From Gallionella sp. (GTDB lineage Bacteria; Pseudomonadota; Gammaproteobacteria; Burkholderiales; Gallionellaceae), in assembly GCA_030652475.1 (NCBI GenBank), contig JAUSAO010000003.1, forward strand, positions 12,960 through 76,959: a stretch of 64,000 nt of DNA, read 5' to 3'. The notes below the pieces were generated by a model, which saw only the letters and a list, made by a program, of their open reading frames with translations, was not told the DNA's origin and made no database searches. The position numbers were made by a program, and so were the translations under genes. How positions within the stretch are numbered: the first letter of the stretch is position 1; each line of letters begins with the position of its first letter. Shown in pieces: positions 6,826 through 17,504 of this stretch.

Positions 6826-8422
6826 TTTTTAACCCCCAGCCCACCCCGAAACCCGTTACCTCGCTGGCCACGCTACCCAGCCCGCCTTCGCAGCGACTGG
6901 CGGACAAGTCTATATGCAGCCAGGGCGTATCGTGTTCTACGAAGCGCTTCAGAAATCGTGTAGCCAGAATGTGGTCGGCCTCACCGTCCAGCGTGCATTG
7001 TTTGATATCGGCCACTTTGGAATCAAGCGCGGCTTCATAGTCTTCATCCAGCGGAAAAGCACACAGGCGTTCGCCGCTTTGGCGACCGACGTTCACCGCG
7101 CGTTGCACCAGTTCATCACGGTTACCCAGTACGCCCGAATAGCGCGCACCCAAAGCCGTCGCCATGCTACCGGTCAGCGTGGCGAAATCGATCATCAGAT
7201 CCGGTTTCTCGCGTGATGCCAACGTCAGCGTATCAGCCAGCACCATGCGGCCTTCGGCATCGGTATGCATCACCTCTATCGTCGTTCCGTTGAGCGCCTT
7301 GACGATATCGTTCTGCTTATAGGCTTTGGGGCTGATGTGGTTCTGCGCCAGCGCCAGCCAGCAGTCGATGTTCACCGGCAGTTTCTGCTGGCTGGCGGCC
7401 AGCAAAATACCCAGTGCGACACCCGAACCGTTCATGTCCTCGTGCATGTTGTGCATGTAACGCGAGGGTTTGAGATTATGCCCGCCGGTATCGAAACAAA
7501 TACCTTTGCCGACCAGCGCCACGGTCTGCTTCGCTTTGGGGTGCTTGTAGGAGAGATGCACGATGGCGGCATCATCAATTTCGCTGCCCTGAGCCACCGC
7601 AACGAACGCACCTGCACCCATCTTGCGCAACGCCTTCATGTCGTATTCCGAATACTGCCATTCGTGCTCTTGCGCCAATTTCTTCACGCGCTTGCGGTAT
7701 TGCCCCGGCGTCAGCTCATTCGGTGGCAACACGGTCAACGCTCGGCACAATAGATTGCCCGCCGCCTGCGCCCTGAATTCCTCCAGCGCCTTGCTGTCGT
7801 CAAATCCGTAAATTGCGATTTTTTGCAGTGCACGGCGTTCATCTTTCTTCTTGTGCACCGGCAGCAACGCACCGTTTACCCATGCCGCATAGGCCGCCAA
7901 TCCGGCAGCCCGTTGCCGCTGGAGCGCATCACCCAGCACCACGATGGCGATAGATTTAGGATATTCGTCCAGTAACGGTTGCAATGCCTTGCGCACCACT
8001 GTTTGCAGCGCGAAGGTATCGCCTAATGGAAAGTCGCGTAGCGCTACGCTTGCCCCCTCGCCCGCAAAGCGGGAGATAACCAGCGACTTGCCCGCTTGCG
8101 GGCTTAGTCGAATGGCTAGTTGTTCCTCCAGGGTTGGGGTGAGGGAACGGGCATGAAGAGCCTTGCTTTTGGAAACTTCACCACGCCCGCTATCGAAATC
8201 CAGCATAGCCCACACGATCAGGCCGCCATTCGTCGCATTAGCCGCAACGGGCGACTTGGCCAGCTCTTCTGCTTTCATGCCGCGCCGTGCCAGCACCGCA
8301 CGGAGCAGATCAACATGCGGCACGCCTTCGGGCAAAGTCTTGGCCTTGGGGAAAATCACCAGCACATGCAGCGCGGAAAGCGTTTCTGGCGGAGTCTGAA
8401 ACAGGGTGAGTTGTGCTAGCAT
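6788..8422 (-). CDS. M17-family leucyl aminopeptidase (PepA paralogue) with an apparent in-frame insertion
   Basis: [18 protein letters not shown] and [12 protein letters not shown] metal-binding motifs. Confidence 0.9.
8052..8154 (-). repeat. Palindromic element in frame within the M17 peptidase, with a nested 54-bp insert (8076-8129)
   Basis: Minus strand reads catgcccgttccctcaccccaaccct[54 bp]ctcccgctttgcgggcgagggggc, similar to the intergenic element at 17411-17464. Confidence 0.7.
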
Positions 8423-15158: not shown

Positions 15159-17375
15159 ATGACTACGCGAAAAATCCTCGTCACCTCCGCCCTGCCCTAT
15201 GCCAATGGCAGCATCCACCTGGGACATCTGGTCGAATACATCCAGACGGACATCTGGGTGCGCTTCCAGAAAATGCAGGGGAACGAGGTGCATTACGTCT
15301 GCGCCGACGACACCCACGGTACGCCCATCATGTTGCGCGCCGAAAAGGAAGGCATCACACCGGAGCAATTGATCGCGCGCGTGTGGCAGGAACACTACGA
15401 TGATTTCAGCGAATTTCACGTTGAGTTTGATCACTATGGCTCAACCAACTCGACTGAGACCCGCGAATCCGCCGAGACCATCTACCGCACGCTCAGGGAT
15501 AAAAACCTGATCGAGGTGCGTTCCATCGAGCAGTATTACGACCCGGTGAAAAATATGTTCCTGCCGGATCGCTTCATCAAGGGCGAATGCCCGAAATGCG
15601 CCGCAAAAGACCAGTATGGCGACAATTGCGAAGTCTGCGGCGCGGCCTATGCGCCGACCGAATTGATCTCACCTTATTCCGCCGTGTCGGGTGCAAATCC
15701 GGAATTGCGCAATTCCGACCACTATTTCTTCAAACTCTCCGCCGACAGCTGCCAGCAGTTTTTGCGCAACTGGACGAAGAGCGGCACGCTGCAAACCGAA
15801 GCGGCCAACAAGATGCAGGAATGGCTGGGCATCGAGGGTGAAAACAAACTGTCCGACTGGGACATCTCGCGTGACGCCCCCTACTTTGGTTTCGAAATTC
15901 CCGATGCACCGGGAAAATACTTTTACGTCTGGCTGGACGCACCGGTCGGTTACATGGGCAGCTTCAAACAGCTGTGCAACAAAAAACCCCATCCTCGCCC
16001 CAACCCTCCTAACCCCCCCATACCCCCCTTGTCAGGGGGGAGCCAATCAGGGAGGGAGACGGACACTCCTCCCCTGGCAAGGGGAGGCTGGGAGGGGTTA
16101 TTTGACGAGTTCTGGAAGGCCGGTTCAAAGACCGAGCTGTATCACTTCATCGGCAAGGACATCCTGTATTTTCACGCGCTGTTCTGGCCCGCGATGCTGG
16201 AACACGCAGGCTTCCGCACACCGACCAAGCTATTCGCGCACGGCTTCCTCACCGTCAATGGCGAGAAGATGAGCAAATCGCGCGGCACCTTCATCACCGC
16301 GCGCAGCTATGTGGATCACATCAAGAACACCGAATACCTGCGCTACTACTACGCGTCCAAACTGAACGGCACGATGGAGGACCTCGACCTCAGCCTGGAT
16401 GATTTCGTCACCAAGGTCAACAGCGATTTGATCGGCAAGTATGTCAACATCGCCAGCCGTTGTGCGGGGTTTATCAGCAAGCGCTTTGACGGCAAACTGG
16501 GCAATACGGATGCGGCGGCCAGCGCAGAATTTCAAGCGGCCTTTACCGGCGGCGAAATCGCACGTTGTTACGAAAATCGCGACTTCAGTCGTGCGCTGCG
16601 AGAAATCATGCGCCTGGCCGATGTCGCGAATCAGTACATCGCCGAAAAGAAACCCTGGGAACTGGCAAAACAGGAGGGCAAGGACGCCGAACTGCTGGAA
16701 GTGTGTTCGACAGCGCTGACACTGTTCCGCGACCTGACGCGCTACCTGAAACCCGTACTGCCCAAACTGGCAGCACAAGTTGAGGCATTCCTCAACATTC
16801 CACCCATGATCTGGGATGACCAATGGGCAGCACTGGGTAGCGGACATGTCATCAACACCTATCAACATCTGGCAACCCGCCTCGACCCCAAGCTGGTAGA
16901 AGCCATGGTGGCCGCCAATCAGGAATCCCTCCCACCCTCTCCGGCAAGCGTGCAAGGGGAAACGGTGCAGTCCGAACAGCGTCATGCCGTACATCAGCAA
17001 CACACGGCCAGCATCGAAGTAGCGCAGGCGGAAAAGGATTTTGAGCCCTTCATCAGCATCGAGGATTTCGCCAAGGTGGACTTGCGCGTGGCCAGGATCG
17101 TCAATGCCGAACAGGTGGAAGGCGCAGCGAAGCTGTTGAAGCTGACGCTGGATATCGGCGACGGAAATTCGCGCACCGTGTTCGCGGGGATCAAGTCGGC
17201 TTATGACCCGGAAAATCTCAAAGGCCGCCTGACTGTGATGGTCGCCAACCTCACGCCGCGCAAGATGAAGTTCGGCCTGTCGGAAGGCATGGTGCTCGCC
17301 GCTTCCGGCGAAGCCTCGGGACTGTTCATCCTGTCACCGGACGACGGCGCACAACCCGGTATGCGTATCAAATAA
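15159..17375 (+). CDS. metG: Methionine--tRNA ligase with C-terminal tRNA-binding domain and an in-frame palindromic insertion
   Basis: [13 protein letters not shown], Zn-knuckle CPKC/CEVC, KMSKS and C-terminal FAKVDLRVA...MKFGLSEGM. Confidence 0.97.
15987..16097 (+). repeat. C-rich/G-rich palindromic element in frame within metG
   Basis: cctcgccccaaccct...ccccccttgtcagggggg...ctcctcccctggcaaggggagg...gggagggg; encodes a Pro/Gly-rich stretch of about 37 aa. Confidence 0.8.
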
Positions 17376-17410: not shown

Positions 17411-17504
17411 GCCCCTTCCCTCGCAAGGATTGCGGGGGAAGGTTGGGAAGGGGGACGGGCATGGCGGGTTTCATTATCAGGGGTGGTTACTTCCCCATGC
17501 CCGT
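17411..17504. repeat. Intergenic palindromic element plus 10-bp inverted repeat downstream of metG
   Basis: gccccttccctcgcaaggattgcgggggaaggttgggaagggggacgggcatgg; acgggcatgg (17455-17464) and ccatgcccgt (17495-17504) form a perfect IR. Confidence 0.7.

Follow-up and report, generated by a model that had tools for sequence, protein, structure and literature searches.

The BoxC/PIT/TMECO class of repeats has been known since the 1990s. Its members are intrastrand-triplex-motif repeats that occur in E. coli and in more than 260 genomes (Holder et al. 2015, PMC4666352, where Hoyne et al. 2000 is cited). In the triplex motif, a loop of 3–6 nt joins a C-rich stem to a G-rich one; after a further loop of 3 nt comes another G-rich block, which can serve as the third strand and mirrors the purine stem via G·G, A·A or T·A (PMC4666352). 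These repeats were described as intergenic and as being without a mobility gene (PMC4666352).

Three other systems are close enough to be compared. Rickettsia palindromic elements (RPEs) sit in frame in many unrelated housekeeping genes, where they are translated in a function-compatible way (Ogata et al. 2000/2002, as summarised in PMC10969869). Most REPs are defined by a GTAG/CGTC tag (PMC3733652), and REPs are linked to RAYTs (REP-associated tyrosine transposases). Finally, DUF559 is placed in the Vsr group of PD-(D/E)XK nucleases (PMC3424549), and I-Bth0305I is a Vsr-like homing endonuclease (PMC3239194).

The locus studied here lies in a window (the whole stretch of DNA analysed, 64,000 nt, C92:12960–76959) from a Gallionella sp. 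MAG of 3.06 Mb, 146 contigs and 54% GC. Here an essential gene carries, in frame, a copy of a mobile triplex-motif palindrome; the copy is genuine and inherited, and the site that it occupies is remarkably polymorphic. Overall, the 111 nt of the insert are best explained, and with high probability, as a composite of mobile triplex-motif palindromic repeats that is kept in frame and tolerated in the methionyl-tRNA synthetase (MetRS).

Like BoxC/PIT/TMECO, the family at this locus has a three-block architecture and is G/C-rich, multi-copy and dispersed, often as inverted pairs on opposite strands; both are also tied to local variability between close strains. Unlike the published repeats, which begin CCCTCNCCC.., the metG dialect begins CCTCCCCT.. 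and has 8-nt stems. Additionally, here a quarter of the clusters are in frame in genes, units nest in loops, and DUF559 genes are flanked.

The resemblance to RPEs is of the "works like" kind: in both cases a palindromic repeat lies in frame in protein-coding genes and does not break them. However, RPEs are ~100–150 bp long, whereas the units found here measure ~31–36 nt and the composites 75–111 nt. Moreover, the units carry the triplex motif in a free-living, iron-oxidising host whose genome measures 3 Mb, and the family spans phyla, with one site filled by several dialects. The Rickettsia comparison drawn in the earlier note thus holds for the in-frame behaviour but not for the type of repeat, which is the BoxC/PIT/TMECO triplex motif and not a Rickettsia family.

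With the REP/REPIN-RAYT systems the locus shares short palindromic units, single or in inverted doublets, that far outnumber a small gene bracketed by cognate units. The bracketed gene is, however, a Vsr-fold DUF559 nuclease and not a Y1 transposase, and the GTAG/CGTC tag is missing. DUF559 falls in the same fold group as the proven homing endonuclease I-Bth0305I (PMC3239194, PMC3424549), and this kinship provides a precedent for a selfish, site-directed role. Unlike in that system, no intron or intein is involved here, and in relatives the DUF559 domain is read through in frame within MetRS and other proteins.

An in-frame insert in metG

The host gene, metG (15159..17375, + strand), encodes a MetRS of 738 aa with a C-terminal tRNA-binding domain. 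The complete insert occupies 15987..16097 on the same strand, that is 111 nt or 37 codons (P277–G313). Empty MetRS alleles have a 3-residue linker, G-I/M-D, at the point where metG has the 37 additional codons. The insert contains no stops in frames +0, +1 and −1, so that 3 of its 6 frames are open.

When 16 solved MetRS sequences were aligned with the query, each matched in two blocks, 3–276 and 315–737. Only 4–5 residues separate these blocks in the solved chains, and the insert therefore comes after residue ~271 of the E. coli enzyme. On its N-terminal side is a helix whose last residue is K276; on the other side follows FDEFW, a segment that belongs to the second half of the Rossmann fold. 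At the DNA level, the TGC codon of ...LC-N-K lies 12 nt ahead of the palindrome. A native stem-loop, CAGCT-TCAAAC-AGCTG (15959..15974, + strand), is located immediately 5′ of the insertion point; it is present in empty alleles too and is a possible target feature.

Since both the length and the sequence of the insert hold the frame open, the DNA would be translated as a 37-residue Pro/Gly-rich stretch. Tolerance of indels, together with the alignment to PDB sequences, suggests that this stretch forms a disordered surface excursion accepted by MetRS. An AF2 model built from 44 close homologues was poor (mean pLDDT 54.7); in it the insert had a pLDDT of 24–30 and no secondary structure, as did other parts of the model.

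Anatomy of the composite

The earlier note had reported a palindromic element translated in frame within MetRS, with about 37 Pro/Gly-rich residues, two hairpins and C-rich and G-rich arms, and all of these were located at 15987–16097. The hairpins are ccccccttgtcagggggg at 16023–16040 and ctcccctggcaaggggag at 16069–16086; one of the outer arms is C-rich and the other G-rich.

Closer reading resolves the insert into three repeat units, two of which form an inverted pair while the third is nested within the left hairpin, in its loop. The first part of the outer left unit (15987..16009, − strand) comprises a degenerate C-rich tail and the 5′ hairpin arm (CCCCATCCTCGCCCCAACCCTCC), and it carries an in-frame 6-nt indel relative to the congener genome G006. 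It is followed by the nested inner unit TAACCCCCCCATACCCCCCTTGTCAGGGGGGAGCCAA (16010..16046, − strand, ~36 nt), within which a triplex unit was called at 16012–16041. The second part of the outer left unit (16047..16058, − strand) consists of a loop remnant and the 3′ hairpin arm (TCAGGGAGGGAG). A spacer without strand assignment (ACGGACACT, 16059..16067) separates the two inverted outer units. The right unit, CCTCCCCT-GGCA-AGGGGAGG-CTG-GGAGGGGT (16068..16098, + strand), has 8-nt stems, a perfect hairpin and a perfect mirror third block (0 mismatches).

Together, the two inverted units make up a palindrome of ~75 nt (AACCC...GGGGTT). We aligned the DNA of empty, simple and nested metG alleles. 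The allele of G023 is a plain (−)unit-spacer-(+)unit palindrome, while those of this genome (G000) and G006 are palindromes of the G023 type plus an extra unit of ~36 nt in the left hairpin loop. The alignment indicates that the third unit landed in this loop later than the inverted pair. Loop-nesting of the same kind was also found beside the DUF559 gene on contig C57 and in further MetRS alleles, P0066 for example.

By RNA folding energy the insert stands out only modestly (z = −2.08, with 3 of 200 shuffles reaching as low an energy). Structure alone is thus unconvincing, and the case that the insert is more than chance rests on its membership in a repeat family.

Inheritance of the insert

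The same in-frame insert is present in the independent congener genome G006, whose MetRS has 96% amino acid identity, and in two database proteins, P0001 and P0002. Between G000 and G006, nucleotide identity is 93.5% in the insert and in the rest of metG alike, and the 6-nt change is the single indel. Given this equal divergence and the in-frame indel, the insert is inherited, stable and frame-kept. The C7, C6 and G6 runs, to which a slippage hazard had been ascribed, are the same in both genomes and hence stable over ~6.5% nucleotide divergence.

The data also bear on whether the insert might be removed before the mature enzyme is formed, in the manner of an intron or intein, or be an artefact of assembly or binning. 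The source is a MAG of 146 contigs, and repeats of the family lie at the ends of 20 of them, and both points count in favour; but independent assemblies carry the same insert in frame, which speaks against the misassembly raised in the earlier note. As for removal, 37 residues are far too few for an intein, and no Rfam family came near its threshold (the best, a miRNA model, scored 25.6 bits against a gathering score of 72). Frame and freedom from stops are kept in every allele, in-frame indels included, which would be needless for a spliced RNA. We consider removal or artefact an extremely improbable account. An intein or a self-splicing intron was rejected as a candidate on the same two grounds of length and Rfam result.

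A family of triplex-motif repeats in the genome

A BLAST search of the element against its own genome placed the 3′ unit at about a dozen further sites with 88–97% identity, often with an inverted partner 8–12 nt distant. A profile search brought in ~70 more units, which belong to a sister dialect whose loop is TTCAA. The units share one architecture: C-stem, loop, G-stem, 3-nt loop and mirror G-block. A finder based on this architecture called 147 units in the genome, both intact metG units included, compared with 3 in a block-shuffled genome. Block shuffling served as the control because the reversed genome does not discriminate: palindromic G/C elements survive reversal (50 matches).

A control that accepted a direct copy in place of the mirror block, at ≤1 mismatch, yielded 120 units versus 147 mirror units and is not discriminating either. 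We therefore turn to 68 units that were chosen independently, with no mirror rule applied. In this set the third block is a perfect mirror in 59 of 68 units and a perfect direct copy in 27 of 68; compared unit by unit, the mirror is better in 35 and worse in 4.

The 147 units form 98 clusters, among them 16 (−)(+) pairs and 10 (+)(−) pairs, and in 20 cases the cluster is located at the end of a contig. Reading of the sequence shows 5 of the 6 frames of a single unit to be open. Within the window, an intergenic relative with a larger first loop (CCCCTTCCC..GGGGGAAGGTTGGGAAGGGGG) is found at 17412..17454 (+ strand), 37 nt after the metG stop. By reading, a further in-frame nested repeat insert of related architecture was located in an M17 aminopeptidase gene (8021..8194, − strand).

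The metG units do not match the TMECO consensus CCCTCNCCC-N3-6-GGGNGAGGG-N3-GGGNGAGGG. With its loops slightly relaxed, the published consensus was found at 13 other sites in this genome and at 25–53 in congeners. As the triplex architecture is there but the sequence differs, the metG insert is assigned by its architecture to the intrastrand-triplex-motif class (BoxC/PIT/TMECO), as a sister dialect and not as TMECO proper.

The organisation in inverted doublets resembles that of REPINs, and the genome does contain Y1-transposase matches. One might take the element for an ordinary REP/REPIN that owes its mobility to a RAYT, but this is highly improbable. The RAYT-like gene at C124:18859–19431 is flanked by a different, GTAG-tagged REP (GTAGGGCGCAATAACCAACGGGCATTGCGCC), the genes of IS200-type TnpA have no units nearby, and the units themselves have neither a GTAG nor a CGTC tag. 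On the sequences that flank these genes, both RAYT and IS200 were rejected as movers.

The ends of the units are inverted (AACCC../..GGGTT). At the filled sites inspected, neither a consistent target-site duplication nor a defined cut site was apparent. An IS-derived MITE was rejected as a candidate, since the inspected filled sites have no consistent target duplication and no transposase-bearing parent was found.

The family is not restricted to this genome. An exact 30-nt unit occurs in at least 120 stretches of other species' genomes, mostly Gallionellaceae; among the matches listed there are also Geobacter, Trichlorobacter, Thiothrix, Omnitrophota and CPR bacteria. In these distant genomes the full doublet is conserved, on long contigs of 35–45% GC. 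On one Paceibacterota contig, it lies 50 nt after a DUF559 gene.

A polymorphic site in MetRS

The majority of the 22 congeners with a MetRS match have only G-I/M-D at the insert point. The 120 nearest MetRS sequences in the database comprise 35 empty and about 83 filled ones, and the fillings belong to at least four dialects. Dialect A is read as PLSGEE...PLTRGGWEG, dialect B as PLEGEG...PLQGEGWGGDG, and dialect C, which is of TMECO type, as LSHGERE...SPSGRGAGGEG; dialect D is a GGATTC heptad array read as SRIEDxGS. In the DNA of one allele each of A, B and C, the arrangement is (−)unit-spacer-(+)unit, and ACCC starts exactly 12 nt past the TGC codon. These alleles share orientation and frame, differ in their peptides, and fold as palindromes with −47 to −84 kcal/mol.

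Some insert is present here in most of the nearest MetRS and the frame is always kept, as would be expected of a selected peptide module, for example a protein-interaction loop, in which palindromy is incidental. On the other hand, near-identical MetRS alleles lack the insert, the peptides of the dialects are wholly different while the DNA palindrome is kept, and the same DNA is found between genes and in unrelated genes in several frames. A selected module is thus very improbable. The pattern is likewise the reverse of a protein-level insert shared by orthologues without a DNA palindrome, which the earlier note had named as evidence against its claim: where their DNA was read, the inserts are palindromes, and it is the peptides that change with the dialect. 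The constraint that shapes the insert would accordingly lie at the DNA level, and selection would act only on the frame and on the absence of stops.

To follow the site through the family, a MetRS tree of 143 Gallionellaceae rows was built with the linker left out. The site states are scattered over it and 63 changes are needed; when only well-supported branches are counted, the minimum is 19 changes each for "empty" and A, 17 for C, 9 for B and 7 for D. Even in the clade of our own sequence (11 MetRS, 100% support), A, D and empty alleles are mixed.

We see two readings of this polymorphism, a recurrent hotspot or a long-lived polymorphism. In the first, units would have been inserted repeatedly at one nucleotide, with the native stem-loop just 5′ of it. 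In the second, one old filled allele would have persisted beside empty ones through recombination, with dialects replaced in place. The filled A, B and C alleles have a derived right flank, P-L-N, in common, with differing synonymous codons. Because of this shared flank the second reading gains, and the scatter on the tree may reflect allelic recombination and in-place replacement of dialects.

In-frame copies in other genes

Inside the same genome, 24 of the 98 clusters fall within ORFs that reach at least 100 codons on both sides. For random 80-nt windows the proportion is 41%, and thus the family is merely mildly kept out of genes. Hosts confirmed by Pfam are ValRS, CysRS, ThiL, AroE, Mfd, an E2 acyltransferase (in the linker) and a P-type ATPase; reading of the flanks adds HsdM, a UvrD-like helicase, an SNF2 helicase and a type IIG-like methyltransferase as further apparent hosts. 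With MetRS, ValRS and CysRS, three aminoacyl-tRNA synthetases carry in-frame copies. Family DNA also lies between genes and in unrelated genes, in several frames.

The proposal of a selfish palindromic repeat that an essential synthetase tolerates, much as in Rickettsia, has therefore held up: the family is dispersed, near-identical alleles are empty, and many genes are occupied in frame.

Association with DUF559 genes

This genome has two DUF559 genes, at C57:5625–5983 (A dialect) and C35:36992–37375 (B dialect). Both are bracketed by units, and for the gene on C57 the units are of the metG dialect. Across the genus, a unit is present within 200 nt of DUF559 in 23 of 26 loci, compared with 0.22 units/kb elsewhere in these loci. 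The usual arrangement has the (+) unit upstream of the gene and the (−) unit downstream of it.

On the DUF559 tree, read with rows L079, L084 and L087, which were translated on the wrong strand, left out, clades follow the dialect of the flanking units, with support of 99/97 for the A clade, 95/94 for the C clade and 99–100 for the B clades. Eight changes of dialect are needed on this tree, as opposed to 11.9 with shuffled labels. In genome G056, a (+)unit-DUF559-(−)unit cassette occupies the exact site in the type IIG-like methyltransferase gene at which our genome holds a (+)(−) doublet.

Unit numbers point the same way. With the A/B and C patterns summed, five good DUF559-negative genomes have 0, 0, 0, 8 and 17 units and five DUF559-positive ones 27–55; these genomes are relatives, and so the comparison is not one between independent samples. 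The 8 and 17 units of the two genomes without a detected DUF559 are of C type, so that the repeats can survive loss of the gene or occur where it is absent. In unit-bearing loci of other genomes, DUF559 is nearby in 1 of 80, so that it may be a passenger which homes into the repeats and does not move them; given ~50 units per gene, the figure is uninformative.

Additionally, the entire (+)unit-DUF559-(−)unit cassette reads through in frame in relatives. It is found in the MetRS linker that precedes the C-terminal tRNA-binding domain in G008, G019 and 9 of 120 database MetRS, and in frame in other proteins of 929–1186 residues as well.

Our search of the literature on DUF559 in connection with repeats found nothing relevant.

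How the units may spread

We tentatively propose, at rather less than even chances, that the DUF559 nuclease spreads or converts the units in trans. Units would be spread, or replaced in place, by the Vsr-fold DUF559 nuclease, whose genes are bracketed by units of the cognate dialect, much as in REP/RAYT but with an unrelated enzyme. They would land by preference in the loops of hairpins and in DNA next to hairpins.

It is also conceivable, if rather unlikely, that no dedicated enzyme takes part. Triplex or hairpin DNA would then provoke replication stalling, template switching and gene conversion, general recombination would spread and swap the copies, and DUF559 would accumulate at them or home into them. 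This fits the report of Holder et al. (PMC4666352), who link local instability of the genome to these motifs and did not find mobility genes. It also fits the persistence of units in two genomes without DUF559, the filled sites inspected, where target duplication was not seen, and the shared P-L-N flank, which suggests in-place replacement. What such a process leaves unexplained is how near-identical doublets came to reside in distant phyla with genomes of 35% GC, why DUF559 clades match the dialect of the flanking units, and why units flank DUF559 in 23 of 26 loci.

Significance of the repeats

The broadest form of the DUF559 proposal is that this nuclease and the triplex-motif repeats constitute a widespread selfish system of enzyme plus site, which resembles RAYT/REPIN in function without being related to it, and that DUF559 cassettes and repeats are routinely read through in essential proteins. 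In such a system the nuclease would recognise cognate units in folded form, among them copies already resident as well as host DNA that resembles a hairpin, after which repair would copy in a unit of the donor dialect. We regard this broad form as doubtful. If true, such a system would explain the loop nesting, the swapping of dialects at one nucleotide of metG and the spread of BoxC/PIT/TMECO. In any case, the bracketing of DUF559 by cognate units provides a concrete candidate for the enzyme that BoxC/PIT/TMECO repeats have been missing.

There is a practical side as well: the repeats break assemblies and inflate the "low-complexity" segments of annotated proteins. Among close relatives the MetRS position may be vacant or occupied by any of four or more dialects and by nested copies, and this variation amounts to a natural experiment on landing, replacement and tolerance. 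To our knowledge, in-frame palindromic selfish DNA has so far been regarded as peculiar to Rickettsia. The free-living iron oxidiser described here has a Rickettsia-like in-frame habit at a comparable scale, with 24 clusters and three synthetases.

A nuclease domain within MetRS and a DNA methyltransferase

In several Gallionellaceae, an entire DUF559 domain (PF04480 + PF18741), a Vsr-fold nuclease, lies in frame within MetRS, in the linker preceding the C-terminal tRNA-binding domain. We observed this arrangement in the genomic loci L037 (genome G008, C1:1211526-1214180) and L045/L084 (genome G019, contig C6), as well as in the database sequences P0026, P0035, P0047, P0063, P0072, P0081, P0100 and P0108. 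The reading frames that hold the domain are stop-free and 848-891 aa long, and peptides encoded by the repeat (..GRGAGGEG.. / ..SPLTPLP..) flank it on either side.

A type IIG-like DNA methyltransferase of genome G056 (L076, C11:2-2788) likewise carries a (+)unit-DUF559-(-)unit module in frame, inserted at ..AAWY.K.A.YM|..|K/TKI..AFVSTNSITQGEQ. In contrast, the orthologous site of the Gallionella sp. genome itself (C124:31995-32060) holds only a (+)(-) doublet. The two look like one site in two states, filled and lacking the gene.

Other inserts at or near the MetRS site

In some lineages, the codon position of the metG insert is occupied by a short array of GGATTCA-like heptads, encoding SRIEDxGS / RMQDSGxGIQ peptides (L034 in G024, L045 in G019, L047 in G013 and L097, i.e., P0044). 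These arrays are a repeat class distinct from the triplex-motif units and are possibly the same as the period-7 arrays of the window. Additionally, a separate insert of ~38 residues (SQPESGMDARRQGGGDADIP.GRLGAADA..NADAPS) was observed ~6 residues downstream of the site, after FDEYWLPQ, in otherwise empty alleles (L038 in G010, P0080, P0106, P0107 and P0118).

Repeats in the window and the rest of the genome

The window carries a nested repeat insert in the M17 aminopeptidase gene (8021-8194, minus orientation) and a free copy 37 nt past the metG stop codon (17412-17454, plus orientation). Both retain the general architecture of the metG units, but their first loops are larger and contain small hairpins of their own.

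Elsewhere in the genome, beyond the window, a gene for a RAYT-like Y1 transposase (C124:18859-19431) has inverted GTAG-tagged REP copies (GTAGGGCGCAATAACCAACGGGCATTGCGCC) on both flanks, forming a second REP system of the classical type.

Because units of 20 out of 98 repeat clusters are located no more than 300 nt from contig ends (for example at positions 12-40 of each of C30, C66 and C136), the triplex-motif family is one of the main reasons why the assembly of this MAG is broken up. The family's actual copy numbers probably exceed those counted.

Copies in distant phyla

Near-identical copies of the A-dialect doublet, one of the sequence variants of the repeat, are present in CPR genomes of 35-45% GC (L125, L127, L170, L171 and L174) as well as in groundwater relatives of Geobacter (Desulfuromonadales loci L103, L131 and L135). 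In the CPR copies, TAC/GTA lengthens the palindrome at both ends, and on the CPR contig L127 a DUF559 gene is found 50 nt from the doublet.
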